In this document: positions 18,534-46,881 of the stretch, piece by piece
How the letters are laid out: the number at the start of each line of letters is the position of its first letter
How positions within the stretch are numbered: the stretch's first letter is position 1
Assembly: GCA_963722385.1 (NCBI GenBank)
Contig: CAVRKK010000001.1
Location: 64,001-128,000 of the forward strand
Direction: 5' to 3'
Source: an uncultured bacterium
GTDB lineage: Bacteria > Babelota > Babeliae > Babelales > Babelaceae
Length of the DNA stretch: 64,000 bases
Notes under the pieces: model-generated
The model's database searches: none
What the model was told of the DNA's origin: nothing
What the model saw: only the letters and a program-made list of their open reading frames with translations
Position numbers and translations under genes: made by a program

Positions 18534-20093
18534 ATGAAGTTTTTTGTGTTTACTTGTGTTTTGTCTGTGCTATTAGGCTGTTCTTGTTTTTCATGGACCA
18601 TGACCGACATACCAGGGAAGGAGAAAGAAAAAGAGCATGAGCATGAGTCCTCCGAAGAAAGCAAGCAGAAACCTGCTTGGAGCAAAGAGGTCCAATCTCA
18701 ACTCTTTCATGCTTTGATCAGTGATAATGTTCTCGATCGGATTAAAGAAGATATTCGCAACAACGGTGAAGACCCGTTCTCCACGCTTCTTGCGGTCTTA
18801 GAAAAAACCAAAGTTGATTTAGAAGCAGCGCGAGAAGCGTTAGAAAATGGGGCCAATCCAAGCTCATGGGAAAAACTTAATTTCGGGCTATTTGCAGAAG
18901 ACGACATCTTACCAGAACCTCTTTGGATAGCAAGCGAAATAGGAAATAAGGATCTCGCTCAACTCCTCCTTACGTATGGTGCCAATCCTAATGCTCCCTC
19001 CGCAATGAGTCTTGAACCACTTTCAAATTCTATAAGCCAGGGTTTTTTTGACTTCGCACAACTCCTGCTTGGAAGCGGTGCACATACCATACCAAGCCAA
19101 GCATTTGAAGCCTTATCCATTTTCTCCCCAAGACAGACTCGACCAAAACTCGACTTTTTCAAATTATTGGTAACTTACGGTCTTAACCTAAATAACAGTG
19201 ATGCTATAGAGATCCTTTCAAGCTCTTTAAGTGATGGTATTTCCACCAGAAATTCGCTTCTTCGCGGGGAACAAAATCCCGAGACCATAAATTGGCTCCG
19301 AAATTATTTAAACCCCTCTCAAATCGCCCATCTTACCAGAGAAAAAAGCAATGAAGAAAAGGCTCAAATTTCAAATGAGCATTCACAGCAAATATCTTTG
19401 GCCATATCGCTTATTCTGTTTGGGGCTTATAGAAATAGTCGATTAAATCCTAGTTTCCGTGAACTTGCTAAGAACATAGGGCTACCTGAATCATCGCCCT
19501 TTTATCTGATACCTCTAGGCCAGATCGAACCAGTAATGAGGCGCCTTGAAGAACTAACTTCAGCGGAGCCTTTGGCTGAACAAAGATCAAAGGAAACAAT
19601 CAGCTACTTCACGGAAGTATTTACACTTGCAGCTGCTTACAGCATTGAACCTATTATCGAATTTATCATCAAAAACAACGCATATTCTGCAGAAACAATC
19701 ATCTTAGCTTTTAATACAGCCACAGCTATCGGCGACTTGCCCATTCTTAAAATTTTGAGATTTTACATTCCTCATGATGCGTTGTGGCAACTTATCAATA
19801 ATAATTTGCAGATCGCTGCTACTCAGTTACATATAGATATTGTTCAGTATTTTCTTCTGCTTGCCAATGAGCTTGGCAAACGAATTGATATAATATCGGT
19901 AAATAACTTCATCAGCAATCTCCTTCGTGATCAATTACTCGAGCCCAATATAAGAAGTATTTATCTACATATTCAATCGCTTTTATGGGATTACGTTCTC
20001 AATCAAACCCGAAGACAAAGTTACTTAGGCCAAATAATGCCCGAAACCCTTCATCACATTCGTAGTTTTGTGGTACATGGTCAAAAACCTTAG
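18534..20093 (+). CDS. Secreted ankyrin repeat protein, paralog 1
   Basis: Signal peptide, PLWIASEIGNKDLAQLLLTYGANPN; colinear with the next gene. Confidence 0.8.
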   Translation: MKFFVFTCVLSVLLGCSCFSWTMTDIPGKEKEKEHEHESSEESKQKPAWSKEVQSQLFHALISDNVLDRIKEDIRNNGEDPFSTLLAVLEKTKVDLEAAREALENGANPSSWEKLNFGLFAEDDILPEPLWIASEIGNKDLAQLLLTYGANPNAPSAMSLEPLSNSISQGFFDFAQLLLGSGAHTIPSQAFEALSIFSPRQTRPKLDFFKLLVTYGLNLNNSDAIEILSSSLSDGISTRNSLLRGEQNPETINWLRNYLNPSQIAHLTREKSNEEKAQISNEHSQQISLAISLILFGAYRNSRLNPSFRELAKNIGLPESSPFYLIPLGQIEPVMRRLEELTSAEPLAEQRSKETISYFTEVFTLAAAYSIEPIIEFIIKNNAYSAETIILAFNTATAIGDLPILKILRFYIPHDALWQLINNNLQIAATQLHIDIVQYFLLLANELGKRIDIISVNNFISNLLRDQLLEPNIRSIYLHIQSLLWDYVLNQTRRQSYLGQIMPETLHHIRSFVVHGQKP

Positions 20094-20235
20094 CGAGGCT
20101 GAGGACTGATTCATTTTTCTCTTATTGAGGTTATTAAGTGCTCATTTTCGCCAGAATTTACCTCATCCTTGACTTAACTTGACTTAAATCGAAGATTTGC
20201 ATATTATAAATACTATAATTTAATTTTTAGAACTC

Positions 20236-21708
20236 ATGAAGAATATTAATTTAAATTGCATCATGCTTGCTTTGCTCGGGTGTTCCGTTTTCACCTGGAC
20301 TATGGATAATGGATCGATCGAAGAAAAAGAGCACGAGAATGAAACATCTGCTCCGGAATCGCCGTCTGAGGAAAGCAAACTAAAGCCAGCAGGGAACAAA
20401 GAAGCCCAAATTCAGCTTTTTCACGCCTTGGTCAGTGACGATACATCGAAAGAGCTTAAAGAAATTCTTCTCAACGACAGCTCATTCTCCCATAGTCTGG
20501 CAAGATTTGCCGATATCTTATTGCAACACAATCATATTGACTTAGAGGCGACCCTCATCGCCTTAAAAAACCGCGCGGATCCGAACGATTGGGAAGAATC
20601 AGACGTTAGGCCTTATATGCCTAGTCCATTATGGATGGCAACTGAATCAGGAAATCACAAGCTCGCTCAACTCTTACTTGCTTACGGAGCTGATCCCAAC
20701 AGAGGGTCTTTGCTCTATGGATCCCCACTTAGAACAGCTATGACTCATGGATATATTGAAATTATTGAATTGCTTCTCGAATCTGGCGCAGACATTAAAA
20801 TCGAGCGCGTACTTAGCCAATTAATGTCATCTAAAGGCCTTGTCTTTCTCCGATTATTCGTAAATTATGGCCTGAACCTTAATAATCATGAAATCGTGAA
20901 AGAAGTTTCGTCTTGTTTAGAAAGCTATCTTTGCTTTCCTTATACTTCACTTTTCGCACATCATAGCCAAATTACTCAAGAAAGTTTAAAACAGCGAAAG
21001 CAAGTAGAGAAAATATTCATATCATTTATCTTTTCTGGTGCTTACAAAGATGAAGTATTACATCCTATTTTTCGTAAAATCGCCGAAAAAATAGGGATGC
21101 GAGAATCCTCATTTCTTTATCAAATCCCTTTAGGTATGACTGAGCCTGTATTAAAACGTCTGCAAAAATTAATTTCAACCGACCCAACATCACAAGAAAT
21201 TTCTAGACTTGTTAATAATGCTTTTGCTCTTGCAGCTGCGTATGACCTTGAACAAATCATTAAATTCCTTATCGACCATAACGCGGTCTCTGAAAATGCC
21301 TTAATCGAAGCTTTTAACGCTGCTACCACTATCGGTAACCTGTCGATATTAAAAACACTTAGACCACTTATTTCTAATACGCTTTTATTGAAACTCACCA
21401 AAAAATATTTGCGAATTGCTGCAGTTCAGCTCCATAGCGATATCGTTCAGTATTTTCTTAAGCTTACTAACGAGATATCCGACAAACCATTCGATATAAT
21501 CCCTGTAAATAAATTCCTAACAAACTTACTGCGTAATAAATATCTAGACCCCAATAAAAAAACCATTTACCTATACATACAATCTCTTCTATGGAATTAT
21601 TTTCTTAATTATAACCCAACTCAACGTTACTTTGGTCAGCTAATGCCGGAATTACGGTATAATATCGGCAGATTTATAGTAAGCGGCCAGAAACCCTTAA
21701 GTCAATGA
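20236..21708 (+). CDS. Secreted ankyrin repeat protein, paralog 2 (tandem duplicate)
   Basis: PLWMATESGNHKLAQLLLAYGADPN; shares QLFHAL.SD, FALAAAY and IQSLLW.Y with paralog 1. Confidence 0.8.
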   Translation: MKNINLNCIMLALLGCSVFTWTMDNGSIEEKEHENETSAPESPSEESKLKPAGNKEAQIQLFHALVSDDTSKELKEILLNDSSFSHSLARFADILLQHNHIDLEATLIALKNRADPNDWEESDVRPYMPSPLWMATESGNHKLAQLLLAYGADPNRGSLLYGSPLRTAMTHGYIEIIELLLESGADIKIERVLSQLMSSKGLVFLRLFVNYGLNLNNHEIVKEVSSCLESYLCFPYTSLFAHHSQITQESLKQRKQVEKIFISFIFSGAYKDEVLHPIFRKIAEKIGMRESSFLYQIPLGMTEPVLKRLQKLISTDPTSQEISRLVNNAFALAAAYDLEQIIKFLIDHNAVSENALIEAFNAATTIGNLSILKTLRPLISNTLLLKLTKKYLRIAAVQLHSDIVQYFLKLTNEISDKPFDIIPVNKFLTNLLRNKYLDPNKKTIYLYIQSLLWNYFLNYNPTQRYFGQLMPELRYNIGRFIVSGQKPLSQ

Positions 21709-21923: not shown

Positions 21924-23165
21924 CTAATTAATTAGCTTAGCATGTTCTCCTAATGCACGATTAGAAAAGTATTTTTTGAGGAAGAATCCGCCGGCTGCAA
22001 TTGCTCCGACCCCAAGAAGGGCAGCCGTACCACCACCAGCACTGATTCCTATAATACAAGAACTACCACAGGGCTCATCGCCATCAGAACTATTTTGTGA
22101 TCCTAATGTTGCTATAGTTATGCTATTTGAGCTTGCATTTGCAGTAGCAAGGCATGTGTTATTTGGCGAAAACGCTACGGATCGAGGATTTGAAGAACCG
22201 GGTGGTTGAGCGTAGGAAGTTGCATTGCTTAAGATTTTTTCAGAGGGAGATGACGCGGTGGTTATCGTGAATAGCGTTATATTATTTGAATCAACATTAA
22301 CGGTTGCAAGGCAGGTACCTGTTGGCGAAAACGCAATTGAATTTGGAGAATTAGAGCCTGAAGGTAGAATATAAGAAGTGCCGTGATCTAGTATCCCATC
22401 GGTTACGGTAAAGAGCGTTACATCATTTGAACTATTAGCAGTAGCAAGCAGAGTGCCGTCTGGCGAGAATGCTAATGCTACCGGCCAACTAGAAGTAAAA
22501 GGCAACCGATATGAAGTTCTATTGCTCAATGCTCCTTCTGTACCTACACTAAATACTATCACATCATTAGCATTGCCATTAGAAATGGCTAGGCAAAGAC
22601 CATCTGGTGAGAATGCTATTGAATTAGGGCCTCCGGAAGGTACAGCATATGATGTTCCCGCATTTAATGTGCCATCTTGATTGACCGTAAATATAGTCAC
22701 ATCATTTGAGCCACCATTAGCAGTAGCAAGATATTTATTATTTGGTGAAAATGCTACCGCGTACGGACGATAGGACTGCGATGGCAAAGCATACGATATG
22801 CCTGGGTTTAATGTACCACTTGGATTCACCGTAAATATAGTTACTTCAAGTGTATCGTTATTCGTGGTAGCGAGATACTTACCATTGGGCGAAAACACGA
22901 CTGAGGTGGGGTGACTAGAACCTGAAGGCAAAGGATACGTAATGCCTGCATTTAATACCCCGTTGATGATCGTAGATATGGTCACATTAGCTGAGTTCTC
23001 ATTAGCGGTAGCAAGGTGTGAGCCATCTGGTGAAAATGCTATTGAACAGGGCCATTGAGCGTTAGCATGTAAAGGGTAAGCACTCAATGACGATAATACA
23101 CAATCCCTAGATTCTGCAGCGCTCGCAAATGCGAGCATCAGGTTTAAAAAAATAAGCGCTTTCAT
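21924..23165 (-). CDS. Exported beta-propeller protein (lactonase/YVTN-like) with C-terminal TM
   Basis: About 7 repeats of P.S[IV]AFSPDG..LATAN..SNDVTIF; signal peptide; hydrophobic C-terminal helix. Confidence 0.8.
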   Translation of the reverse strand: MKALIFLNLMLAFASAAESRDCVLSSLSAYPLHANAQWPCSIAFSPDGSHLATANENSANVTISTIINGVLNAGITYPLPSGSSHPTSVVFSPNGKYLATTNNDTLEVTIFTVNPSGTLNPGISYALPSQSYRPYAVAFSPNNKYLATANGGSNDVTIFTVNQDGTLNAGTSYAVPSGGPNSIAFSPDGLCLAISNGNANDVIVFSVGTEGALSNRTSYRLPFTSSWPVALAFSPDGTLLATANSSNDVTLFTVTDGILDHGTSYILPSGSNSPNSIAFSPTGTCLATVNVDSNNITLFTITTASSPSEKILSNATSYAQPPGSSNPRSVAFSPNNTCLATANASSNSITIATLGSQNSSDGDEPCGSSCIIGISAGGGTAALLGVGAIAAGGFFLKKYFSNRALGEHAKLIN

Positions 23166-26667: not shown

Positions 26668-27159
26668 GTGAAAAGTTTAGCTCTATCTGTCTTTGTTATT
26701 TCTCTTCTTATAAGCTTAGAATTACAGGCTACTAATTGCACAGGAATATCATATGCTGCATTACCAAACTGTGGTAGAACTAGTTCTTACCTTTCCAATT
26801 CAATAGCATTTTCACCAGATGGTTTATGCCTTGCTATTGGTACCGATAATGGGTTGGGTGCAGGATGTGTAGCGATATTTCAAGTAGCAGCAAACGGTAC
26901 CTTATTAGGCGGAACATCGTATGGCTCTGGTACTAGCCCTATCTCAATAGCATTTTCACCGGGTGGGTCTTATCTTGCTACCGCTAATAAGGGTTCAAGT
27001 GATGTAACGGTGTTTATTGCTTCTAATTGCTTACCCATAGGAACAAGTACAACCACCGGTACGGGTACCGGCACAAGTACAAGTGGTACTTATACAGGCA
27101 CCAGCGCAGGTACCAATGCTGCAAACTCTTTACCATGTTTTATTACTTCTTTGTTTTAA
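26668..27159 (+). CDS. Short exported protein with two propeller-type repeats and a Thr/Gly tail
   Basis: NSIAFSPDGLCLAI identical to a segment of 21924..23165; TTTGTGTGTSTSGT tail. Confidence 0.7.
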   Translation: MKSLALSVFVISLLISLELQATNCTGISYAALPNCGRTSSYLSNSIAFSPDGLCLAIGTDNGLGAGCVAIFQVAANGTLLGGTSYGSGTSPISIAFSPGGSYLATANKGSSDVTVFIASNCLPIGTSTTTGTGTGTSTSGTYTGTSAGTNAANSLPCFITSLF

Positions 27160-30486: not shown

Positions 30487-32400
30487 TTACTTGCCGGGAG
30501 GTGCGAGCTTGCTGAGCATCTCCTCGGTGGGTGTTTTTTTCTTCTTTTCGCCAATTTCTTCTTGAATTTTGCCAAAGGTCTCTGAAACCGCTTTGATGTT
30601 TTCGCTTACTTTTTTTAATGTTTGCCCGTCGGGAGTGGCAAGCTGTTTTTCCGTGTAAGCATCAAATGCTTTTTGTGCGAGCTCAATATTTTTCGCAAAG
30701 TCTTTGGTATTTTTCTCTAAGCTTTTCCAGAGGGTTTTATATTGCTTCTTCTGGCGGTCTTTAGCCTTTTGAAGGCTTTTCTCTACGTACGTTAACTTCT
30801 CGGTCAGATCATTAAGATGGGTTGACTCGGCAAAGCGGGTGACATCAGCTGTCAGTTCTTCAGCAGGTGTTGTGGCCTTTTGAAGGTTTTCAAAAAATGG
30901 CTTGTCAAAATGCTCATTAAACATAAAGAAGCGCTGGTCAAGGTCTAGAAGCTGCTGTGCGAGTGCGTCATAGCTTTCTTTTTTCTCTTCTTTTTTTTCT
31001 TTATCTTTCTCTTTGCCCGCTGCTTTGCCCTTTTCTTGTTCTTTCTTTTCTTTATCTTTCTCTTCTTTCTTTTCTTCTTCTTTTTCCTCTTCTTTCTTAC
31101 CTCCTGGCTTTCCGCCACCGACGCCGCCCGGTTTCCCCTTGCCGCCTGGCTTTTCTGTCTTTTTTTGTGGTGGTTTTTCTGGTGCGCGCTCGCCACTTGG
31201 CTTAAAGGATGGTCGTTCACCGCTTGGCAGCGATGGCCTTTCCCATGGTGACCCGAATGCCCCACGCGAGGGGCGTTCGGGTCGTATATGAATCGTTTTG
31301 CCGTATGGTTCAGCGGCTGCAAATGCCTTGTGCTCTTTAAGTCGCTCAGCTTGTTCTTTTTCCATTTGCTTTCTTAGCGCGAGCTCTTCAGGTTCATACT
31401 TTTTTATAAATTGTTCAAGGCCATTGAGTAATTGGTCTTGGTAGATCGCGTTGCCCAAGATTGACGTAATTGCTTGGCGTGCGCTTTCCAATGATTTTGT
31501 TGTTGCTTGTTGGGCTGTCTGTATAGCCTGTAGCTCTTGATTTACGATGGCGCGTGATTGTGGGTCTTTGATTCTTTCGTAAGCATCCTTAACGAAGTCC
31601 GCATTTATTTGCGCTTCTCGTAGGGCTTTTTCTATTTCAGCGGCACTCCATTGTGCTTGCATGAGGCGTTGGCGCAAGCCGGATATATCGAACCGTTGGC
31701 TGATTTCGGCATATGCCTCATCGATAGCTTCTTGTGTAGCGGACGGCATTAATCCAAGAATTTCATAAGGGTCCTCCCATTGCTGGGGCTTTTCTATAGG
31801 CATGCTTAGTATTGGCTCATATGTTTCTAAAGCCCTATTAAGCCTTTCGAGCGACCAGCGGAGCTTGTCATTTTCAGTTGCTGCAAGCCGTTGATAGTTC
31901 TCAGACGTATTAATCGTTAATAATGTATTGATGAGCTTATTGGTATCAGGTAGCCATGTTTTTAGCGGCACTTTTAGCCTTGCAAGGTCAAGACGCCGAA
32001 TTAATGAGCCGAGCAGTCCGGGCATTTCCCGCACAATATTCTTTGGTGGCTCGATAACGGGTTTAGTTTCAGGCTTAATTTCCGGAACTTCCGGCATTGG
32101 CGGCTTTTTTTCTTCAACAGGTTGTTCGGGTGTTAGGGGCTTGAAGGTCTCAGGGTCAATACCCATACTTCTGAGGTTTGCTTTTGCTTGGCGCTCAAGT
32201 TCTGCAATCTCAGCGTCGTCGAGATTTTTCAAGTAATTGAGCATTTCGTCAATTTCTTTTTCCGATATTTCGATAGGTGGCAGTCCAGCTGGCGCGGGAA
32301 ATGCGGGCGCTGGAAGGCGCGCATGCAAGAAGATGAGCAAAAAAGCCGTTAGAGCTTTAAAATAGCGTGATGCTTTTTTTAAGAATGTAGTATACTTCAT
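30487..32400 (-). CDS. Exported protein with an HPD-less J-like domain and K/E-rich linker
   Basis: Signal-like N-terminus; DPYEILGLMPSATQEAIDEAY ... VKDAYERIKDPQSR. Confidence 0.65.
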   Translation of the reverse strand: MKYTTFLKKASRYFKALTAFLLIFLHARLPAPAFPAPAGLPPIEISEKEIDEMLNYLKNLDDAEIAELERQAKANLRSMGIDPETFKPLTPEQPVEEKKPPMPEVPEIKPETKPVIEPPKNIVREMPGLLGSLIRRLDLARLKVPLKTWLPDTNKLINTLLTINTSENYQRLAATENDKLRWSLERLNRALETYEPILSMPIEKPQQWEDPYEILGLMPSATQEAIDEAYAEISQRFDISGLRQRLMQAQWSAAEIEKALREAQINADFVKDAYERIKDPQSRAIVNQELQAIQTAQQATTKSLESARQAITSILGNAIYQDQLLNGLEQFIKKYEPEELALRKQMEKEQAERLKEHKAFAAAEPYGKTIHIRPERPSRGAFGSPWERPSLPSGERPSFKPSGERAPEKPPQKKTEKPGGKGKPGGVGGGKPGGKKEEEKEEEKKEEKDKEKKEQEKGKAAGKEKDKEKKEEKKESYDALAQQLLDLDQRFFMFNEHFDKPFFENLQKATTPAEELTADVTRFAESTHLNDLTEKLTYVEKSLQKAKDRQKKQYKTLWKSLEKNTKDFAKNIELAQKAFDAYTEKQLATPDGQTLKKVSENIKAVSETFGKIQEEIGEKKKKTPTEEMLSKLAPPGK

Positions 32401-36954: not shown

Positions 36955-38440
36955 GGTGCGCTCGTCTCCGTTCCCGCTGTCCTGGCTCCCTTTTTTTGTC
37001 GCGGTGAACATTGTGGGTACTCGTCTTGCGCTGTTTTGGCGATTTTAAGGTTCTTTTTTTTAGCAGGTGTTGGAGGCAGGCGCGCAGGGCTGCTTGCAGC
37101 GAGTGCTGCTTGCTTTTTTTTGTACGCCCGGTGACCTGAGCAAGGTGCGGGTCGAGTTGATGTGGCGCTGGTTGCTTGAGTAAGTAGTCTTTTAGATTCT
37201 TAAGAATTTCTTCGAAGCTACCCTCAAGCCTTCTGCTCTTTATGCGCTTTTTTGTTGCATTCATGGCATGGAGCATGAAGAGAGCGGTACGTATATCGAG
37301 CACGCCATGGAGCGATGCTTGGGGCGGGATATGAGGTATCTGAACGGCGGCTGCTTTAAAAATTGCCATAAGCTGCTGCTTTGAAAAAGCGAGCCTAAAT
37401 TCTGCGAGAGCGAGAGCGAGCGCGCCGGCGACGATAGCGGCGGCAGCGGACGTGCCGCTCAGAAATAAGTATGGGGTGGCGGAGCCTGGTACTGGTACAG
37501 CTGTTGAGAGGATGTCAACCCCGGGGGCAAGGAACGTTGGGCCTTTAGCTGGTTCGTATTGTGAAAAAGTTGGTAGGAAGCACGTATTATCTTGCTCATT
37601 GATGCCAAATGCCCCGACCGATAAGGTAATTGCGTCAAACCGTGCCGGGTATGCTAATTGCGCTGTATTCCCGCCATTTCCCGCCGCTGCTATGGTATAG
37701 GGAACTTTGTGTAGTAGGTCATTTATGTAAGCAGATGCCGGTGAATCAGGTATGATAGCGTCATCTATCTTGAGGCTTAAGAGCAGAATATCTGCCCTAA
37801 GCTCGATTGTCTTTTTTATTGCTGCTATCAGTGTTTCTTTGTCGCTCGTGCCGCTATCATCGAATGCCTTGATCATAATGATCTCTGCTTTTGGGCAAAG
37901 CGAGGACTCCGTCCCCTGAGCATGGGGGTTCTTCTGGGCAGCAAGAATTCCATAGGTATGGGTTCCGTGTGCTTGCGTAGGATTATATTCCTGTTGGCTC
38001 AGCATGGTAATTGGTGCGGCCAAAGGCAGTAACGCATTGCTTGTTATATCGAGGTTGCTCCAAGCATGCTTATAGCGGCATTTTAGGTCCGGGTGCGCTC
38101 TATGCTTGTTGTCTTTCGTGGTGTAGGCGGCTAGTCCAGTATCGATAAGGGCGAGGCGCACCCCTGAGCCGCGCCGTGGTGCCAGCTGGCGCAGGCTAAA
38201 CTGATGCGGTAGGTAGGAGCAACATGCCTGCCCGGGGTTGGTGGCGAGACCTACGGTAGGAAATGCAAAGTGCCACCAGAATTTTCGTGAGGCTGGGGTA
38301 TTTTTTTGAGGCAGCTGGTCGCTGCAGTACAGTTGGCAGGGTTTATTCCGAAGCGCCGGTCGGAATGGGTGTCCTGTCCAGGCACCGTTCATGCTCTGTG
38401 TGAGCGTGGCGATTAAGCTAATTATCTTTGTTGTCTTCAT
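36938..38440 (-). CDS. S8 subtilisin-like serine protease
   Basis: Catalytic triad motifs LIDTG, HGTHTYG, SGTSA; oxyanion AAAGN. Confidence 0.85.
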   Translation of the reverse strand: MKTTKIISLIATLTQSMNGAWTGHPFRPALRNKPCQLYCSDQLPQKNTPASRKFWWHFAFPTVGLATNPGQACCSYLPHQFSLRQLAPRRGSGVRLALIDTGLAAYTTKDNKHRAHPDLKCRYKHAWSNLDITSNALLPLAAPITMLSQQEYNPTQAHGTHTYGILAAQKNPHAQGTESSLCPKAEIIMIKAFDDSGTSDKETLIAAIKKTIELRADILLLSLKIDDAIIPDSPASAYINDLLHKVPYTIAAAGNGGNTAQLAYPARFDAITLSVGAFGINEQDNTCFLPTFSQYEPAKGPTFLAPGVDILSTAVPVPGSATPYLFLSGTSAAAAIVAGALALALAEFRLAFSKQQLMAIFKAAAVQIPHIPPQASLHGVLDIRTALFMLHAMNATKKRIKSRRLEGSFEEILKNLKDYLLKQPAPHQLDPHLAQVTGRTKKSKQHSLQAALRACLQHLLKKRTLKSPKQRKTSTHNVHRDKKREPGQRERRRAHPNKSE

Positions 38441-38484
38441 AGTGCTTTTAGCGTAGCATGGCGAGGTTTCTGTTCTCAAGAGCA

Positions 38485-38716
38485 GCGAATTGAATAAATG
38501 GCGCCTGCGCGGCCGACTTCGCCAAGGCTACGATGGGAACGCTTGCGCAGCGGGCGCGCCTGTGCGGCGGGCAGCAGGGCGGCGGCCCTGCACCCACACC
38601 AATATGCGTAGTAGCATACGATGTCTCCGTATTGCTCTATCTTTTATCTTTTCTCGCGTCATAACCATGCGGGGCGCATGATTATGACAAACGCAATTTT
38701 CCTGGCGGAAAAATAG
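38485..38716. repeat. Composite hairpin repeat, copy A (left half only)
   Basis: GC-rich block 38540-38601, unique spacer, hairpin GTCATAACCATGC..GCATGATTATGAC 38658-38688, hairpin ATTTTCC..GGAAAA. Confidence 0.85.
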
Positions 38717-38761
38717 ATTCTTCTTCTGCAGCAAGTGCTCTACCCAAAATTTTTAAGAAAT

Positions 38762-38886
38762 AAAAAACCACCACGCTAGCTTGCGCCAGCGTGGTGGAAA
38801 AAAGGAGAGTAGTAATGAAGCCTAATTGAGTATGAAGCGATTTTGAATTTTTGCCGGTTCTGCCAGCTCTTTTCTAATCTCTTCAT
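38762..38886 (-). ncRNA. Candidate ~125-nt small RNA with anti-RBS seed
   Basis: TTGACA-N16-TATCAT promoter (38920-38893), CUUCAUUACUACUCUCC segment, terminator stem 38797-38768 followed by U6. Confidence 0.5.
38768..38797 (-). terminator. Intrinsic terminator
   Basis: CCACCACGCTGGC-gcaa-GCTAGCGTGGTGG followed by TTTTTT on the minus strand. Confidence 0.85.
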
Positions 38887-38969
38887 GATTTAATGATACC
38901 TGTTTTTTTTTCTTTGTCAACATATTAAAAAAAGGAAAATGCGTGAAAGCCGCACCTTGTTTCAAAGGG

Positions 38970-40037
38970 TCAATAGGCAGGAAGCGCAATACGTTCATAA
39001 TCGTAGCGGGTGCATATTTCCTGGAGCGGTGCATGGGGAATGGGTGAGGTTATGAGAATTTGTGTCTGGTACGACGTGAGAAGCTTGAAAAAGCGGTCGA
39101 GTCGCTCATGGTCCAAATCCGAAACAACATCATCGAGCAAAAAGACGCAGGACTGCGGATGTTGCGTCGCAGGCTGCGCCACCTTGAGCAACATGGCCAG
39201 CAGTTTTTGCTGCCCGCGAGAAGCGTAGACTCGTGATGACTTTTGCGATAGGAGCGTCACGTAGTCGTCAAGATGTGCTCCGAATAATGTTCTTCGCGCG
39301 GCTTGCTCCATTCTCAACGTGTTCATGTCGTGCTGTAGTATTTCCTTAGGCTTGTAGGTTAGCTGAACCTTAAGCTGCTCACGGTCGAAGAAGAGCGCTA
39401 TCAGGTTATTAAGCCTCTGCTCAAGAGCGATGAGGACTTCCTGCCGTTTAAGTCGGACTGCCTGTGTTATGGCCAAGAGCTGCTCGGTCCATAATTGGTA
39501 GGAGTCGTAGTCGAGGCGGCTGGCAACAAGGAGTGCGTTGCGTTGCTCAAGAATGCTCAGGTATTTTCGGAGGAGTACTGGGTAGTCCGGGTCGATCAAC
39601 ATTATTGCTTGGTCCAAAAAGGCACGCCTGACCTCCGGTGCTCCTTTAATAAGAAGCATATCCTCATCAGTCATTGCAATGACGCGATAAAGTGTTATCA
39701 GCTCCTTATACGATTTAAGAGGGGCATCATTAATTTTTATGAGGCGCTTTGACTGTTTGCCTTGCTCAGGAGAGTAACCTGCGGTGATACTAATAGGCAG
39801 CCCGTTGTTGTTATCGATCTGCAGCTTGATTGAAAAGGCGCTTGCGCCAAAGTTCACCAGGTCACGCGTTGTTCGCGTTTTGAACGAGCGCAAGTAACAG
39901 GCATAATGGAGAGACTCAAGCAGCGAGGTCTTGCCAGAACCGTTAGGGCCTTCGATGAGAACAAGGTTCTTGTTAAAAGGGACCTCCAGGCTTGTAAAGC
40001 AGCGGAAATTTTTTAGAGCAGCTGATAGTATATGCAT
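38970..40037 (-). CDS. recF: DNA replication/repair protein RecF
   Basis: NFRCF, GPNGSGKTSLLE, GAPEVRRAFLD, ASRGQQK, LLDDVVSDLD. Confidence 0.93.
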   Translation of the reverse strand: MHILSAALKNFRCFTSLEVPFNKNLVLIEGPNGSGKTSLLESLHYACYLRSFKTRTTRDLVNFGASAFSIKLQIDNNNGLPISITAGYSPEQGKQSKRLIKINDAPLKSYKELITLYRVIAMTDEDMLLIKGAPEVRRAFLDQAIMLIDPDYPVLLRKYLSILEQRNALLVASRLDYDSYQLWTEQLLAITQAVRLKRQEVLIALEQRLNNLIALFFDREQLKVQLTYKPKEILQHDMNTLRMEQAARRTLFGAHLDDYVTLLSQKSSRVYASRGQQKLLAMLLKVAQPATQHPQSCVFLLDDVVSDLDHERLDRFFKLLTSYQTQILITSPIPHAPLQEICTRYDYERIALPAY

Positions 40038-40050
40038 GAAAACCCAATAG

Positions 40051-41166
40051 CTAGCCCATAGGGGCGACGGGCATGACCAGGTAGGTCACTTCCAGATCGC
40101 TTGCCTGAGCCTCAAAGATGATTGGCCGCGTATTATTTTTTAGGAAGAATGTAAGCGTGTCATGGGAGAATGACTGGAGGCCATTGAGGAGGTAGGGTGC
40201 GTAAAACCGTATATCGAGCTCATCGGCAAAGCCGGCCACGGGTAGTTCCTCATCAAGCGTGCCAACTTCTTTGTTGTGGACCGATACGCGTAGTTTTTCA
40301 GGAGAGAAGGTAAACTTGGTTGCCAGAAACTGCCCAGAGAGCAGGCACACCGACCGCCTCAGTGTTTTAACAAAGCGGTTACGATCCACCGTCGCTGGTG
40401 TAAAGGACGTTTTATCCAAGATTGACTGGTACTGTGGGAATGAGTCGCTGAGCAGCTTGGTAAAAAAGTTGAACAGCTCGCCGGAAAATACAAGCTGGTT
40501 GCCGCATATTCCCAAAAAGAGCGTTTGGTCTTGATAAGAATCTAAGATTTTTTTAAGTTCAAAGATTGCTCTTCGGGGCAGGAGCCAGGTGCGTGGCGCT
40601 TGCAGGCAGTGCTTGGACGAGCGCGCCTGGGCGAGGCAGTGGCCGTCGGTTGTTGTCATGGTGAGCTCCTGCTCAGATATTTCGAGGAGCAGACCGTTTA
40701 AAGCAGGGTTTGCGTTGTTCTGAGGTATCAAAAAGGCTACGCTATCCAAAATTTTAAGAAAGAGCGGCGCTTCGAGGTGCATAAGGTTTTCGATACGCTC
40801 AGGAAAGGGCGGGAATTCGTGTGGGTCCTTGATATTGAGCGCAAGGTTAACCGCGCCTGCTTGCAATACAAGCTGCTGTTGGTTTAAGAAGCATGTTATC
40901 GAGCCTTCAAGCTCTTTTACTATTTCGAATATGCGCTTTCCTGGAACCAAGAAGGTCTCTGGTTCAGTCAACGTACTTTCTGCAAGCAACAAGCTTGCCT
41001 GAAGGCTTATTTCCAGGTCGGTGCTTTTGAGCACGAGTTCTTTGTAGCCAACCTGGAACAGGATGCATGAGGTTGCCTCGAGCGTGGTGCGTTTTGTGCA
41101 AATAGGTTGCATTGATGCTAAGGAGTTCAGTAAGTTCTTTTGGTCGACAACGAAGCGCTTTTCCAT
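40051..41166 (-). CDS. dnaN: DNA polymerase III beta sliding clamp
   Basis: 371 aa; STDLEI, TTDGHCLA, FPQY, YLVMPV; upstream of recF. Confidence 0.93.
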   Translation of the reverse strand: MEKRFVVDQKNLLNSLASMQPICTKRTTLEATSCILFQVGYKELVLKSTDLEISLQASLLLAESTLTEPETFLVPGKRIFEIVKELEGSITCFLNQQQLVLQAGAVNLALNIKDPHEFPPFPERIENLMHLEAPLFLKILDSVAFLIPQNNANPALNGLLLEISEQELTMTTTDGHCLAQARSSKHCLQAPRTWLLPRRAIFELKKILDSYQDQTLFLGICGNQLVFSGELFNFFTKLLSDSFPQYQSILDKTSFTPATVDRNRFVKTLRRSVCLLSGQFLATKFTFSPEKLRVSVHNKEVGTLDEELPVAGFADELDIRFYAPYLLNGLQSFSHDTLTFFLKNNTRPIIFEAQASDLEVTYLVMPVAPMG

Positions 41167-41265
41167 GGTTTTTAATTCTTTTAAGTTATCGCAATTTTTT
41201 CTTTAGTATAGCAGACATCTTTCTTAGCGAAAAGTGTAATTCGCTGTATCGCCCGCGCGAAATAT

Positions 41266-41677
41266 CGCCTACGCGGCGAGCGCGCCTATGCGGCGGGCAG
41301 CAGGGCGCGGCCCTGCACCCACACCAGTATACACGTAAGCGAAGGGCTTGGTTATTGCTCACTGCTCGGTTTTTCTCTTTTAATGTCATAACCATGCAGG
41401 GCGCATGATTATGACAAACGCAATTTTCCTGACGGAAAATAGAAAGCGATATTAAATTTTTATCATGCAGCGCATGATAATGGCGTAAGTTATCGTACGC
41501 TTTGGCGAACGATAACTACACACACCAAGCCTGTAAGCATAACGCTTTGGGGATCGCTAAGGGACGATGTCCCTTAGCCGCTAGCCGCGCAGGCGATTTA
41601 ATTCGATTCGCTTTTGCTGGATCATATCTACGGTGCCCATTCCCGACTTCGCCGAGGCTACGTCGGCCGCGCAGGCG
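41266..41677. repeat. Composite hairpin repeat, copy B (both halves)
   Basis: Same blocks as copy A; 41420-41639 is identical to 45570-45789; ends with a REP-like CCGACTTCGCCGAGGCTACGTCGG hairpin. Confidence 0.9.
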
Positions 41678-41706
41678 ATTCGATTCGACTCAATTTTATT
41701 AAGCTC

Positions 41707-43140
41707 TTAATAAGCACGAGCTACGAGAACATCCCCCTGGCTTTCCTTATCGCAGGCGAAGCACTTGCTCAGCACCTTGCTCTCGAGCCTACAACGGATC
41801 GTTGCTTTGTGCTGCTTAAGCACGGCCTCACACTCGCGTGAACCGCACCAGCCTGTCTGATAAAAGCCACCCACCGTCTCTAAATCATGGGCAAACGGAT
41901 CCGGCCCTGCAAGAAGTGACTCACGAACAAACCATAACTGCTGCCGTTTCTCGAGAGCGCGCTTAAATAGCTCCTGCTGCATGTCATCGAGCTTTTGCTT
42001 TATAATAGCAGGAAGAGACGCTAACGCATAAGCCTGCTTAGGCTGCATCTCCATACGGTCACTTACCACTGCTTGCCGCTGCTCAAGATCACGTGGCCCA
42101 ATCTCAATACGCACCGGGACGCCCTTGAGCTCCCACTTGTAAAATTTTGCGCCTGACGTCTCCGTCTCCTCGCCATCAAAAAGGACACGTATACCATGAC
42201 TCTCGAGGTCTGCGCGTACCTTAATTGCCTCGTCTACTATCTGTTGCTTATATGGCTCTTTAAAAATAGGGATAATAACAACCTGAATAGGCGCAACCTT
42301 AGGCGGCACCACCAGGCCCCGCTTATCCCCATGCACCATAACAATCGCCCCTACCAAACGTGTCGTAACAGCCCAGCTTGTTAAATAAGGATACGAAATA
42401 CCCTCTTGGCGGTCCTGAAATGTTATGCCAAATGCCTTCGCGAAATTTTGGGAGATAAGATGCGAGGTCCCCATTTGTAAAGCCTTGCCATCAGCCATGA
42501 GCCCCTCAACTGTCAGCGTCTTGTCGGCCCCAGCAAAGCGCTCCGATTCAGACTTAATACCAGCAACGACAGGGATCGCTAAGTAATTTTGAATAAGGTC
42601 AACGTACTGGTCGAGCATCAGCTGCGCTTCTTCCTCAGCCTCCTTGGCTGTCTCATGCGCTGTATGCCCCTCTTGCCACCAAAACTCAGTTGTACGCAAA
42701 AATGGTCGCGTGCGCATTTCCCAACGTATAACGTTCGCCCACTGATTAATCTTCATGGGCAAGTCACGCCATGACTTTATCCAGCGAGCAAACATGTAGT
42801 GGATAATGGTCTCCGACGTAGGCCGTATAACCAAAGGCTCTTCGAGCTCTTTGCCCCCCGCGTATGTCACCACCGCGAGCTCGGGAGAAAATCCCTCAAC
42901 ATGCTGCGCTTCCTTTTTTAAGAATCCCTCCGGTATCAGCAGCGGGAAAAGGGCATTGTGGTGGCCCGTGTCTTTAATTTTTTTATCAACAATCTTTTGA
43001 ATGTTTTCCCAAAGGGCGCAACCATAAGGCATCACCACAATACAACCGCGCACCGGCGACTGATCGGCAAGCTCTGCCTTATAAACAACTTCTTGATACC
43101 ACTCTGAAAAGTCCTTTTCAATATCAGGCAACTGAGTCAT
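41707..43140 (-). CDS. proS: Prolyl-tRNA synthetase, archaeal/eukaryote-like type
   Basis: IRPTSET, RWEMRTRPFLRTTEFWWQEGH, LQMGTSH, C-terminal ARAY. Confidence 0.96.
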   Translation of the reverse strand: MTQLPDIEKDFSEWYQEVVYKAELADQSPVRGCIVVMPYGCALWENIQKIVDKKIKDTGHHNALFPLLIPEGFLKKEAQHVEGFSPELAVVTYAGGKELEEPLVIRPTSETIIHYMFARWIKSWRDLPMKINQWANVIRWEMRTRPFLRTTEFWWQEGHTAHETAKEAEEEAQLMLDQYVDLIQNYLAIPVVAGIKSESERFAGADKTLTVEGLMADGKALQMGTSHLISQNFAKAFGITFQDRQEGISYPYLTSWAVTTRLVGAIVMVHGDKRGLVVPPKVAPIQVVIIPIFKEPYKQQIVDEAIKVRADLESHGIRVLFDGEETETSGAKFYKWELKGVPVRIEIGPRDLEQRQAVVSDRMEMQPKQAYALASLPAIIKQKLDDMQQELFKRALEKRQQLWFVRESLLAGPDPFAHDLETVGGFYQTGWCGSRECEAVLKQHKATIRCRLESKVLSKCFACDKESQGDVLVARAY

Positions 43141-43215
43141 ATACGCATCCTATTGGTTGAGTTTTGCACTATTTTAGTGTACCAAACAGAAGACAAGAAG
43201 ACAAAAGGCCTTGAG

Positions 43216-43532
43216 CTATCCGGCTTCGCCAAAATTGCCAGGTAGGATAACAGATGTCGCTTCAGGAAATTCAGGTGTAGTTAGAGTTATCGTGGGTATG
43301 AGAACGTGGTTAATTGTTGAATTCGTACGAGCCTGCAATGCGCTTTCTTTGCGCACATGCCTGAGCGCCTCAAGCATGTGCTGATATCGCATTCGGGCAT
43401 CTTCTGGCATGCCATCTCGCTTAAGCAATAAAGTAATATACTTTTCGGCTGGATCAAGATTAAAAAGCAAACCACCGCTTCTTGTGAGGCTGCTGAGCAT
43501 AGGATGCTCAGCAAAAAGAGTAGAAGCATCAT
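43216..43532 (-). pseudogene. Internally deleted/frameshifted remnant of a secreted ankyrin-family gene
   Basis: Signal peptide in one frame; FNLDPAEKYITLLLKRDGMPEDARMRYQHMLEAL in another, resembling the C-terminal module of the ankyrin paralogs. Confidence 0.4.
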
Positions 43533-43549
43533 GGTAGCTCTACCAATTT

Positions 43550-44092
43550 TTATAGCTCTTCTTTGCCATGCTTTTTATGAATGGCTTGATAAGCTTTTTC
43601 TGCTTCCTTGAGCTCGCGGCGCGCGTCTTCCTCATTTTGCAGTACTGCTTGCATGAGGAGCTCTTTATTTATTTTTTCTTCGTTGCCCGCTTGCTTATTC
43701 CATGTATCAAGCCATTTATCTAGGTCTGCTTTATGGTCTTGTGCTTCAGTAAGTGCTTTTTCTGCCCAATACAGCCACTCGGCCTCCGGACTCTTATGGA
43801 ATTCCGCACCATCAAGGAGCTCTTTGAGCCGCACTTCTAATCGTAAAACGTCAAGGCTTGCTTCCTCTGCCTCAGCTTTGCTTTCTTTAACCGTTCCTTG
43901 AAAGGTCTCTGGAGAGTCGAAAAATTTTTCCAGGTCGTACAATAAACTTTCTCGTGCTTCTTTTGCTTCTTCGCGTGCTTCCTCAAGCTCAATTGCGATA
44001 CGCTGTATATCGCTCAGGTGCGTGCTTTGTGCGGCATATGTTTGGCCAAGCGTCGTTATGAGCATTATAAGCCAGGTTGCTGTAATTTTCAT
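43550..44092 (-). CDS. Exported acidic coiled-coil protein ending in KEEL
   Basis: RBS GGAG, signal peptide (TYA|AQ), E/A/K-rich helices. Confidence 0.75.
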   Translation of the reverse strand: MKITATWLIMLITTLGQTYAAQSTHLSDIQRIAIELEEAREEAKEARESLLYDLEKFFDSPETFQGTVKESKAEAEEASLDVLRLEVRLKELLDGAEFHKSPEAEWLYWAEKALTEAQDHKADLDKWLDTWNKQAGNEEKINKELLMQAVLQNEEDARRELKEAEKAYQAIHKKHGKEEL

Positions 44093-44240
44093 ATTATCTC
44101 CTTAGGTAGATTTCACGTATCGGAGGAAAAGCATAGACGAACAATATAAACTTTGCAACATTATTTAGTACAATTGGGCTAAGCTTTTATTTAAGATCAA
44201 TATGCTTAAGAAATTTACCATTTTTACGAAGGAGTTACCG

Positions 44241-45410
44241 GTGAAACAATTTATATATCTTGTGCTTTTGTGCGGTGTGTTACCGCTCGCTGCAGCTAAC
44301 GTAAGCATTCCTCTCGCTGACGCTGAATCCCCTATTTTCCAGGCTACTTCGGTGGCCCATGAGGTATATGGTGTTATACTTGCTGGTGGTATAGGGGAGC
44401 GGTTATGGCCGCTTAGTCGTCAGGATAGGCCAAAGCAGTTTTTGCCGCTTATAGGGGAGCGGTCGTTGTTGGAAATTACGCGTGATCGGCTTGAGGGCGT
44501 TAACGGGACCAAGCGTTATTGGGCAGTGACGACGGCGCCTCTTGAAAATGGCGTTCGCTTACTCTTGCAAGGCAAGCTTGATGATGTAATTGTCGAGCCC
44601 GCTCGTCGCAATACGGCTGCGGCTCTTTTATTCACATGTTTTCGCATCGCGCAGCGTAGTCCCGAAGCGCAGGTTATTTTTCTGCCGAGTGATCAGTATA
44701 TTTCTGATGCTCGTATTTTAGCACAAGCTCTTAATGCCGCTCTTGGCAATTCGTTGCCTGGCCACATAACCTTGCTTGGCATCAAGCCTTCATATCCAGC
44801 GACCGGGTATGGCTATATTAAAGTAGCAAGCGAGCTTACCGAGAGCAGCCCTAATTCCCCCGTACCACTTCAAGTGGCGCCTGTTGCTGGCTTTTACGAG
44901 AAGCCAACTTATGATAAAGCACAGGAATATGTACGTGCTGATAATATGCTGTGGAATGCGGGGATATTTTGTGGCAAGGTTTCATCGTTTATTCGCCAGT
45001 TTGAGCAGTATGCTCCTGACATTTATGAAAGTGTATTGGCATTTCTTGAGGGCCGGGCTTCTTATGAAGATATTCCTGCTACTTCGATTGATTATGCAGT
45101 TTTAGAAAAGTCTTCTGCTGTTTCTGTTGTTCCCGTAAGCTTTGAGTGGGCGGATATTGGCAGTCTATCGTCACTTTTAGGATTTAGGGCAGAGTATAAC
45201 AAGCCCGGGCATGCTGAGCTTTGTGTTAATTGCGCCGGCAATCTTGTGCATACGAGTAAGAAGCTTGTAGCGCTTATTGACGTTGAGGGGCTTTGTATTG
45301 CTGATACTGATGATGTTTTGCTTGTTGTTCCCTGCAAGAGCTCAGAGCGTGTTAAGCTTGCTCTTGAGGAGCTTAAGCGCGATGAGGGTGCTTATAGGCA
45401 GTATTCGTGA
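44241..45410 (+). CDS. manC: Mannose-1-phosphate guanylyltransferase with signal-like N-terminal extension
   Basis: ILAGGIGERLWPLSR..PKQF, EPARRNTA, TGYGYI, FYEKP, WNAGIF, SIDYAVLEK. Confidence 0.9.
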   Translation: MKQFIYLVLLCGVLPLAAANVSIPLADAESPIFQATSVAHEVYGVILAGGIGERLWPLSRQDRPKQFLPLIGERSLLEITRDRLEGVNGTKRYWAVTTAPLENGVRLLLQGKLDDVIVEPARRNTAAALLFTCFRIAQRSPEAQVIFLPSDQYISDARILAQALNAALGNSLPGHITLLGIKPSYPATGYGYIKVASELTESSPNSPVPLQVAPVAGFYEKPTYDKAQEYVRADNMLWNAGIFCGKVSSFIRQFEQYAPDIYESVLAFLEGRASYEDIPATSIDYAVLEKSSAVSVVPVSFEWADIGSLSSLLGFRAEYNKPGHAELCVNCAGNLVHTSKKLVALIDVEGLCIADTDDVLLVVPCKSSERVKLALEELKRDEGAYRQYS

Positions 45411-45431
45411 GCAAAAAGAGCTGGTTTGAAG

Positions 45432-45789
45432 CGCTTACGCAGCGGGCGCGCCTATGCGGCGGGCAGCAGGGCGGCGGCCCTGCACCCACACCATGGGAAT
45501 TTTTTGCTTTATAGCTTACCTTTGCTTGCCTAATGCCGTAACCATGCGGGGCGCATGATTACGGCAAATGCAATTTTCCTGACGGAAAATAGAAAGCGAT
45601 ATTAAATTTTTATCATGCAGCGCATGATAATGGCGTAAGTTATCGTACGCTTTGGCGAACGATAACTACACACACCAAGCCTGTAAGCATAACGCTTTGG
45701 GGATCGCTAAGGGACGATGTCCCTTAGCCGCTAGCCGCGCAGGCGATTTAATTCGATTCGCTTTTGCTGGATCATATCTACGGTGCCCA
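45432..45789. repeat. Composite hairpin repeat, copy C (both halves)
   Basis: Same blocks; hairpin variant GCCGTAACCATGC..GCATGATTACGGC; 220 bp identical to copy B. Confidence 0.9.
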
Positions 45790-45804
45790 AGCAAGCGATT
45801 TAAC

Positions 45805-46881
45805 TCAGCTCTTCTTGCGAGCACGCTGCTTTGGCGCCCCGGCCTTGCTTTTCAAATACTCAAGATCAAGCTTAATCCAGAAATGGTTACTCGGGTCGTC
45901 ATATACGATCCGATCTGAAGGAATGGTCTTTAACTGGCCACGATCAACCGCTTCAAAATAAATAACGTGCTTAAGAAACCGCTCATCAAAACCATAACTC
46001 GGAAACTCATTGCCAAAGCCATACGGATGCGTGCGTAACGCTATATCGGTAGGATGGCGGCCTTCGTCGCAAAAAAGCGTCCTGTGTAAGATATACCCCT
46101 TCATTGCCTTTTGCATATCAAGCCACCTGACGCGCTTAGCACCAAACGCACTAGCAAGAATTGGGCTGTATTGCTTGAGATGAACGACCCTCTGCGTTGC
46201 CCAGCGCCCAAAATCACGTATCCTAAAAAATCCTCGCTCCGCTTTTGCACTCGCCCACTTTAGTATCTGCTTGCTCATCCTAAAATCACCGTTGAGTCGC
46301 GCCGGCAGCTCGTCAGCATCACGGATATAGGCAATGGCTACCTTTGGATCGTCAAAAACAAGGAACCGCCACATCGATCCAGGGGCCGCAGCTATTGAGT
46401 TAGAGGCCATCAAAAAGATCTCCATATCGGCCGCCAATAGCCTCGGGATAAGGAACTTCAAGTCATCAGCAAGATATACACGCATAATCCACCCAGGAAA
46501 ATGCCGCTTTACCATCGCTACCTGAGCTAAGAGAGACTTGATAAACTTATCATAAAATGGTTGATTTCGCTTAACGCTGGGCGATGGCCGATACATTGCC
46601 TCTTCTGAAATAACCGGCATAGGCCCATCAGCAAAAGGCGGCTTCCAAAATAAGCTATACGCTATAACCTTTTTCTTGTTGCCACCCTTGACGTTGTAAG
46701 TATTTTTTATGGCGAACATAGCATTCAGCTCGCTGTGCCGTTCTGGATGATTATCAAACAAAGTGTACAAATACTTGAGCCGAAGTGGCTTAAATACTTC
46801 AGCAAATGTCTCAGCTTTAACGCTACCAGCGCTTAAAAAAGTAATTACGAGCATTAATGAAACAAGTCTATTTTTTACCAC
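45805..46881 (-). CDS. Exported putative GT-A-like (DxD) protein
   Basis: Signal peptide; KKVIAYSLFW, FPGWIMRVY, MWRFLVFDDP, IRDAD, GFDERFL. Confidence 0.55.
   Translation of the reverse strand: MVKNRLVSLMLVITFLSAGSVKAETFAEVFKPLRLKYLYTLFDNHPERHSELNAMFAIKNTYNVKGGNKKKVIAYSLFWKPPFADGPMPVISEEAMYRPSPSVKRNQPFYDKFIKSLLAQVAMVKRHFPGWIMRVYLADDLKFLIPRLLAADMEIFLMASNSIAAAPGSMWRFLVFDDPKVAIAYIRDADELPARLNGDFRMSKQILKWASAKAERGFFRIRDFGRWATQRVVHLKQYSPILASAFGAKRVRWLDMQKAMKGYILHRTLFCDEGRHPTDIALRTHPYGFGNEFPSYGFDERFLKHVIYFEAVDRGQLKTIPSDRIVYDDPSNHFWIKLDLEYLKSKAGAPKQRARKKS

Follow-up and report, generated by a model that had tools for sequence, protein, structure and literature searches.

Mosaic, hairpin-rich intergenic repeats in the reduced genome of a Dependentiae-type bacterium

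The closest described counterparts of the repeats reported here are the BIME and REPIN elements of proteobacteria, mosaic intergenic elements in which short GC-rich palindromic units stand in direct and inverted order (PMC3733652, PMC2817692), and the BOX elements of Streptococcus pneumoniae, which are assembled from boxA, boxBn and boxC modules (Croucher et al. 2011, PMC3049150). We analysed a 64,000-nt window (G000:C1:64001-128000) of the genome of a Dependentiae-type, host-dependent bacterium and report on three intergenic elements in it, termed A, B and C. We consider them to belong to a family of about 45 non-coding, mosaic, hairpin-rich repeats that lie between genes and are restricted to one lineage. 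The family probably spread as a non-autonomous element of the BIME/REPIN/BOX type, mobilised in the past by an enzyme that is not encoded next to it. The lineage-restricted family is new, whereas its class of mosaic intergenic repeats is known.

Like BIME and REPIN elements, the family is composed of short GC-rich palindromic units in both orientations, and folds into larger hairpins; no target duplication was seen by eye at its full copies. It differs from them in several respects. The sections cited describe RAYT transposases for the known systems (PMC3733652, PMC2817692), whereas no RAYT gene was found here. The invariant unpaired GTAG or CGTC tag described for REP sequences (PMC3733652) has no equivalent either: the loops of the repeat units in our family read TACGC, TATGC, TGTGC, TCCGC or TGCGC, without an invariant tag, and the units measure 17 nt instead of 20-40 nt. 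Our family further differs in its additional hairpin modules and in its long internal stretches rich in AT or T, and the host is not a proteobacterium.

The resemblance to BOX elements, compared by architecture only, lies in the modular build with variable module numbers, the size range (170-480 nt here, 67-637 bp in BOX), the inverted-repeat ends, the predicted stem-loops and the restriction to a single lineage; BOX elements were also judged parasitic with slow turnover in the sections cited (PMC3049150). In contrast to our family, for which no target duplications were seen, BOX elements generate them (PMC3049150), and the ends here are GC-rich in a genome of 43% GC.

Copies and module architecture

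The host genome is reduced (1.6 Mb in two contigs, 93% complete). Coordinates in it are given as C1: and C2:, and those without a prefix refer to the window. The initial annotation, made from the sequence of the window, had described a three-copy element; A, B and C were confirmed at the places given there, but genome-wide the family has about 45 dispersed copies. BLAST with A, B and C as queries matched 46-47 loci in the whole genome, and iterated nhmmer profiles yielded, above set score cuts, 45 left blocks (M1), 42 copies of the hairpin module M2 and 27 right halves (M3). BLAST E-values between copies ranged from 1e-32 to 1e-137 and are thus not explained by chance. With three copies within 7.3 kb, A, B and C form a local cluster, compared with a genome mean of about one copy per 38 kb (42 in 1.6 Mb).

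From the left, a copy consists of an inverted-repeat end, an optional CGACTTCGCC module, two to three 17-nt mini hairpins, the hairpin H0 with a C-rich tail, a T-rich tract and the hairpins H1 and H2. After H2 there are two alternative endings, either a mirrored right half (H3, H4, H5 and an inverted-repeat end) or a different module, M4, with the same type of end. The left end reads (GAATA)n-ATC-GCCTRCGCGGC and the right end GCCGCGCAGGC-GAT-(TCAAT)n, forming inverted repeats of about 14-20 nt with pentamer runs of variable length. These ends pair with each other and close the predicted fold of B. The terminal 15-mer was found 31 times in the host genome with at most one mismatch, versus once for a reversed control.

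Within M1, the mini hairpins have a 4-bp stem around TAYGC, and H0 has the form CAGGGC-N4-GCCCTG followed by CA-CCC; as had been claimed, CCCTGCACCCACACCA closes this block in A, B and C. The variable tract measures 45-120 nt (median 52) and contains 46% T, versus 28% in the genome. M2 is nearly invariant, and M3 may carry optional inserted hairpin modules. Long dyad forms of the B/C type account for 24 of the 42 M2-centred copies, and M3 is absent from the remaining 18. A is grouped with these 18 and is not a truncated B; its AT-rich linker reaches as far as the recF terminator (38768-38797), where the element ends. In 10 of the 18 an AT-rich linker leads into M4, a structured module unrelated to the rest. 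M4 is 150-280 nt long, starts with UCUGAUGAGGCCC and closes with the family end unit, and some copies have two inserted hairpin modules. Compensatory change was found in 9 of its 49 predicted pairs (five copies), and it had no match in Rfam. A hammerhead-like CUGAUGA in M4 was rejected as a candidate, as no ribozyme model matched.

Much of the layout first described for the three copies was upheld. The arms of H1 are GTCATAA..TTATGAC in A and B and GCCGTAA..TTACGGC in C, the ATTTTCC..GGAAAAT hairpin follows in all three, and the spacers reported as 56, 58 and 41 nt correspond to 63, 65 and 48 nt between model borders, which is equivalent. The proposed mirror symmetry was recovered by the M3 profile, which also matches the left half in reverse orientation. 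A repeat search reproduced the near-identity of B and C (41381-41639 versus 45531-45789, 98% over 259 nt) and also recovered the left GC block and the hairpin block as repeats. The right limits proposed for B and C had to be moved to approximately 41697 and 45808. Two further points needed revision. The right-half 'spacer' of about 68 nt contains the hairpin H4, and the three left spacers, which had been called unrelated, are one homologous T-rich tract with subfamilies, each type of which recurs in other copies.

Pairing, module exchange and distribution

All 23 full long copies folded far better than dinucleotide shuffles (z -4.6 to -12.6), and the assertion that structure is kept by compensation was substantiated in every hairpin tested. 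Across the 42 copies of M2, 93% of cells are paired, and both sides have changed in 7 of the 21 pairs (59 cells). None of 500 shuffles equalled this, and slid registers gave at most 6 such cells. In M1, for which 42 of the 45 copies were aligned (three were dropped because of insertions or truncation), 9 of 13 pairs have changed on both sides (60 cells; 0 of 500 shuffles). The two compensatory pairs noticed initially proved to be real and to belong to this wider pattern; pair 7-33, for example, is A-T in 20 copies, G-C in 5 and C-G in 4. Compensation tracks subfamilies, which fits selection on source copies, and templated correction of quasi-palindromes is a possible mutational route to the same changes.

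Modules differ in how well they are kept and in their nearest relatives. Mean pairwise identity is 0.83 for M2, 0.79 for M1 and 0.60 for the variable tract (shuffles: 0.53). Between partners chosen by M1 and M2, mean identity was 93% in M1 and 90% in M2, and 65% in the intervening tract. In extreme cases, C and C2:448842 are 100% identical in M1 and 96% in M2 with a tract identity of 54%, and C2:741299 shares 100% of its tract with C2:728931 at an M1 identity of 86%. The tracts of B and C are 51% identical despite their near-identical right halves. As the nearest relative differs from module to module, each module has its own history, shaped by recombination or gene conversion among the copies. 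By these sequence comparisons, the family is evidently a mosaic that swaps modules.

The family also appears to be restricted to this lineage, with respect both to M2 and to the whole element. BLAST with B found nothing in 39 of 40 relatives and a 21-nt match (E 5e-4) in the remaining one. A covariance model of M2 had no match in 150 other genomes of the phylum, and in five relatives, including a same-genus genome, it gave nothing except one match at chance level (E 0.02). This weak match, in the same-genus genome beside the coding sequence of an SPDG-repeat protein, was taken as chance. The terminal 15-mer does not occur in the same-genus genome, versus its 31 occurrences here. Exact M2 patterns were found neither in genome_contigs nor in metagenome_contigs, collections from which the host genome's own records are possibly excluded.

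In the same-genus genome, whose DnaN is 74% identical, the gap between proS and dnaN measures 31 nt, compared with 540 nt here, where it holds B. This difference supports an insertion of B, although the flanks are too diverged to define its junctions. A literature search retrieved no paper on such repeats in Dependentiae. In agreement with the initial annotation, which did not recognise a named family, Rfam 15 gave no match at gathering score in the window, none at E <=1 in 38300-46000, and only chance-level matches in 10 other copies; no tRNA or tmRNA was found in the window.

Table 1. Parts of copies A, B and C (window positions) and location of M4 copies
Feature	Position	Strand	Details and basis
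A, left end	38487..38540	+	GAAT-type terminal pentamers, terminal unit CGCCTGCGCGGC (38502-38513), optional module CGACTTCGCCAAGGCTACGATGGGAAC (38514-38540); matching unit and module upstream of left GC block in other copies
A, M1 (left GC block)	38541..38596	+	Two 17-nt mini hairpins, H0 CAGGGC-GGCG-GCCCTG (38575-38590), tail CA-CCC (CCC 38593-38595); nhmmer, alignment, covariation, tail register
A, T-rich variable tract	38597..38657	+	Small ATATGCGTAGTAGCATA hairpin insert common to other copies; nearest other tract 71% identical
A, M2	38658..38714	+	H1 (38658-38688), conserved linker, H2 (38696-38714); alignment, covariation, covariance-model match 75 bits
A, AT-rich linker and element end	38715..38767	+	Aligns with linker of M4-bearing copies
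Neighbour outside element, terminator-like hairpin	38768..38797	-	Intrinsic-terminator-like hairpin and T run downstream of recF; 13 pairs, then TTTTTTATTT
B, left inverted-repeat end and M1	41260..41321	+	End AAATATC-GCCTACGCGGC, H0 (41301-41315), tail CCC (41318-41320); nhmmer, alignment
B, T-rich variable tract	41322..41384	+	Nearest other tract 72% identical (C2:684719)
B, M2	41385..41440	+	H1 (41385-41415), H2 (41423-41440); alignment, covariation
B, right half M3	41441..41610	+	H3 (41460-41480), H4 (41489-41516), H5 GCTAAGGGA-CGATG-TCCCTTAGC (41556-41578), right inverted-repeat end GCCGCGCAGGCGATT (41584-41598), ATTC pentamers; nhmmer, folding
B, outer right extension	41611..41697	+	Linker, module CCCGACTTCGCCGAGGCTACGTCGG, second terminal unit GCCGCGCAGGCGATTCGATTC (41666-41686); repeat families D9, D18, I6; extension present in other copies
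C, left end and M1	45427..45488	+	H0 (45467-45482), tail CCC (45485-45487); M1 100% identical to C2:448842
C, T-rich variable tract	45489..45534	+	86% identical to C1:183947, 83% to C2:473300
C, M2	45535..45590	+	H1 (45535-45565, arms GCCGTAA/TTACGGC), H2 (45573-45590); alignment, covariation
C, right half M3 and shortened outer extension	45591..45808	+	H3 (45610-45630), H4 (45639-45666), H5 (45706-45728), end unit (45734-45748), extension ending AAGCAAGCGATTTAACTC; repeat search, alignment
M4 copies	L008:251-450; L015:164-363 (-); L016:199-400 (-); L017:262-462; L012:275-475		Five longer copies: L009-L011, L013, L014

The left end of A is an inverted match to the outer right end of B (repeat pair I6).

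Mobility and competing explanations

Of the options offered in the initial annotation, a REPIN-like non-autonomous element fits the data best. The hairpins would matter on single-stranded DNA or RNA while source copies are copied or mobilised, which would account for the subfamily pattern of compensation. The family is probably old by now, as the identity of any two full copies does not exceed about 88%, and at present most of its change would come from exchange among the copies, by recombination or gene conversion; the near-identity of the right halves of B and C, which lie 4.1 kb apart, is compatible with such exchange. If read through, A and B would be co-transcribed as passive structured RNA.

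Several observations weigh against past spread by mobilisation. The initial annotation had suggested looking for a RAYT/HUH gene beside the copies. We found no such gene beside any copy, and no partner enzyme in the genome at its 93% completeness. Matches to PF01797 (Y1) comprised two intact and two broken IS200-type copies with no family copy adjoining. The hairpins at their ends (CCCCAGG..CCTGGGG and GCCGGC..GCCGGC) differ from CATGCG..CGCATG of the family. The inverted repeats of the resident ISAs1-like and IS630-like insertion sequences (IS) are also unlike the family ends; other multi-copy IS-like proteins are present, the ends of which were not inspected. No target-site duplication was visible by eye at 23 full copies, whose termini are blurred by variable GAATA/TATTC pentamers. 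Nor was an empty site found in a close strain, so mobility of the family is inferred. In four soil-metagenome runs, the contigs are interrupted within the repeats and reveal neither empty sites nor the identity of B and C.

The conservation of M2 is another difficulty. M2 is better kept than the adjoining tract in 39 of 41 copies, even in comparison with their closest relatives. About 1.7% of M2 cells are rare variants, which occur at similar frequency in stems (0.64 per column) and in unpaired columns (0.80). This conservation is the chief argument for a local function, or alternatively for homogenisation through gene conversion, and plain decaying junk does not explain it. Moreover, the two strands differ weakly. 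The bottom strand folds better in 17 of the 23 full long copies, 26 of the 42 M2 copies have a conserved C.A mismatch, and the wobble-compatible mismatches in M2 favour the bottom strand, as 16 cells that read A.C on the top strand would be G.T on the bottom one, versus 7 that are G.T on the top; these counts are overstated as the copies are kin. This weak asymmetry hints at a strand-specific folded form, as would also be predicted for a functional RNA.

The strongest competitor is an ordinary miniature inverted-repeat transposable element, whose cut-and-paste movement would depend on its terminal inverted repeats and on a DDE transposase acting in trans, with hairpins that are incidental to a palindromic layout. 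The inverted-repeat ends and the short, non-coding, dispersed copies would suit such an element, as would the several active-looking IS families of the genome, which we take to be ISAs1-like (seven copies with 8-9-bp duplications) and IS630-like (four copies), with identities of 97-99% within families. However, the resident IS ends that we inspected do not resemble those of the family, the 23 full copies lack a visible target duplication, and internal stems far from the ends keep their pairing by compensatory change. We therefore regard this explanation as unlikely.

The remaining explanations depend in part on where the copies lie. Each of the 42 M2-centred copies lies in a gap between genes; 16 of these gaps are convergent, 20 tandem and 6 divergent. 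This resembles REP sequences, which are described as lying mostly between convergent or same-direction genes in the section cited (PMC3733652). Genome-wide, 18% of gaps are convergent, 59% tandem and 22% divergent, so convergent gaps are in excess among the copies (chi-square p ~0.004 with crude, open reading frame (ORF)-based gene calls). By Pfam, the neighbours of A are recF and a subtilase gene, those of B are proS and dnaN, and C is flanked by a mannose-1-phosphate guanylyltransferase-like gene on one side and an unnamed ORF on the other. A and B occupy gaps in a minus-strand gene string in the order proS, B, dnaN-recF, terminator, A, protease gene.

This position means that the bottom strand of A and B would be transcribed, as expected if the repeats were a structured non-coding RNA or cis-acting RNA family selected at each locus, with the bottom strand as the RNA. 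Covariation in all hairpins, the strong fold z-scores, the better preservation of M2 than of the adjacent tract within each copy and the larger number of G.U-compatible cells on the bottom strand all agree with this idea. In tandem gaps, however, the element is found either way round (12 copies in one orientation, 8 in the other), and no conserved promoter or terminator was found. The family includes mosaic and truncated forms, its palindromic design folds on both strands, and Rfam gave no match. Its absence from relatives means that no conserved gene is involved. An RNA family, which the initial annotation had listed as an option, is thus quite improbable.

REP sequences also bind gyrase and IHF, and copies of the present family could by analogy have been co-opted by the host as protein-binding or transcript-end sites, with M2 as the bound site. 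The excess between convergent genes would be consistent with this, as would the near invariance of M2, which extends to its unpaired CGCAAT linker, and the copies upstream of dnaN (B) and dnaA (C2:23572). On the other hand, we know of no M2-binding protein, which counts against such a role. The same-genus relative lacks the element at proS-dnaN, and the coincidence of dnaA and dnaN was noticed post hoc. Even though REP sequences have been hypothesised to act in transcription termination and mRNA stabilisation, according to the section cited (PMC3733652), we give co-option little credence.

An assembly artefact as the source of the near-identical right halves of B and C is very improbable. Public short-read contigs end within the repeats and do not reach across them, but the left junctions of A, B and C are each spanned by independent contigs that show 0-2 differences, B and C have different flanking sequences, and other pairs of copies also share modules at 96-100%. 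Finally, a replication origin or single-strand priming signal, the remaining option proposed initially, can practically be dismissed. In its favour, B is found immediately upstream of dnaN and a further copy upstream of dnaA, and the copies show a weak orientation bias with respect to replication (28 of 42 copies, p 0.04). Against it, some 45 copies are more than origins would allow, and the sole strong DnaA-box cluster (starting at C2:597093) falls at the minimum of the cumulative GC skew (C2:597392), which places oriC at C2:597.1-597.4 kb. The window has no such cluster and is near the terminus, as the skew maximum is near C1:154 kb.

Two side observations concern these loci. The likely oriC, with 8 DnaA boxes within 500 nt (C2:597093-597600), is far from dnaA (C2:22.5 kb) and dnaN (C1:104-105 kb). 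The copies upstream of both dnaN (41260-41697 in the window) and dnaA (C2:23572-23729) may be a chance pairing.

A large mosaic repeat family is present even in the reduced 1.6-Mb genome of this host-dependent bacterium, with one copy inside the proS-dnaN gap. The family also provides a clean natural data set for compensatory change and module exchange in DNA repeats.

The end hairpin H0, its tail and repeats in Clostridia

Three sets of positions are linked in H0 and its tail: the purine triplet that follows CA, the pyrimidine triplet that precedes TG and the three bases next to TGCA on its 3' side. Among the 34 copies with perfect stems, 23 have the states GGG/CCC/CCC, 7 have GGA/TCC/CCT and 2 have GAA/TTC/CTT; with two exceptions, 32 of 34 obey the rule. 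The register of the tail is parallel-complementary (mirror), as in a triplex that would be of the pyrimidine motif when read on this strand and of the purine motif when read on the opposite one. In the parallel register, 91.7% of cells are complementary and 10 are compensated (0 of 500 shuffles), compared with 85% and 2 cells in the antiparallel register. In the host genome, the rule represents approximately only two independent switches, and an extended Watson-Crick stem on the top strand that tolerates G.T pairs is a possible alternative.

A scan of genome_contigs for H0 with its tail returned 32 loci, many of them in Clostridia metagenome-assembled genomes. With a looser pattern that does not include the rule, five Clostridia genomes gave 64, 125, 73, 8 and 0 matches, and the reversed control gave 0 in all five. 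Among the 150 matches listed, 140 have perfect stems; by hand count, 136 of these obey the rule (73 GGG/CCC, 62 GGA/CCT and 1 GAA/CTT) and 4 do not. The Clostridia repeats (L059-L086; G161-G164) share with our family the same 21 non-loop bases of H0 and tail and the same three stem/tail states, and a CTGCGCGGC..GCCGCGCAG hairpin adjoins the module. Nothing else is alike: in the Clostridia genomes only the H0 part of M1 matched, and M2 and M3 had no match. The Y1 genes of the Clostridia genomes with the H0 module are of the IS200 type, and no module was found within 1.5 kb of them.

A further difference is that the Clostridia module is found at the 3' ends of ORFs, its loop TAA being the stop codon (two loci checked). 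At these two loci (L076:601-625 and L069:601-625), the hairpin reads CAGGGC-TAAA-GCCCTG, and a reading frame already open where the locus begins terminates at the loop TAA. The repeat seems to supply the stop codon of the ORF.

The known repeats most similar to this arrangement are the TMECO/BoxC intrastrand triplex repeats (Holder et al. 2015, PMC4666352). According to the sections cited, these also consist of a hairpin and a third block in triplex register and are intergenic and multi-copy without strand bias. Our motif resembles them too in that it would be a purine-motif triplex on its G-rich strand. They differ from the module described here in having three 9-nt blocks, compared with 3 covarying positions, and in the side of the hairpin on which the third block lies; moreover, our motif is one module of a larger element. 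The published triplex finder requires blocks of at least 6 nt (PMC4666352), and H0 with its tail has only 3 positions in register.

H0 and its tail are predicted to fold into a small hairpin with three base triples, and this structure may be a handle recognised by a mobilising enzyme. More speculatively, and with considerable doubt, the mirror-covarying tail and H0 could form a small intrastrand triplex that acts as the recognition handle of an undescribed DNA mobilising or processing system common to the repeat families of Dependentiae and Clostridia, with unrelated hairpin modules being exchangeable. Since a pairing rule of the triplex type holds for this short hairpin and its tail in two distant phyla, the old question of whether mobile DNA uses non-B DNA structures as signals becomes testable.

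We also made some minor observations on resident genes. The termini of an ISAs1-like IS (C2:1023243-1024492 and six other copies), CAGGGCCGGC...GCCGGCCCTG, resemble the H0 stem CAGGGC..GCCCTG, and an M1-like fragment (C2:1023045-1023085) is located about 200 nt upstream of one ISAs1-like copy. Two copies each were found of an IscB-like protein with RRXRR and HNH motifs recognised by eye (C1:291690-292889 and C2:1160226-1161509) and of a candidate TnpB-like protein (C2:87434-88417 and C2:1260354-1261337). In the window itself, coding sequences contain tandem repeats, comprising an SPDG-type repeat with a period of 141-159 nt, ankyrin-like repeats and a CT-rich low-complexity run (22103-23041, 26797-27016; 7763-8187; 18924-21474; 30968-31114).

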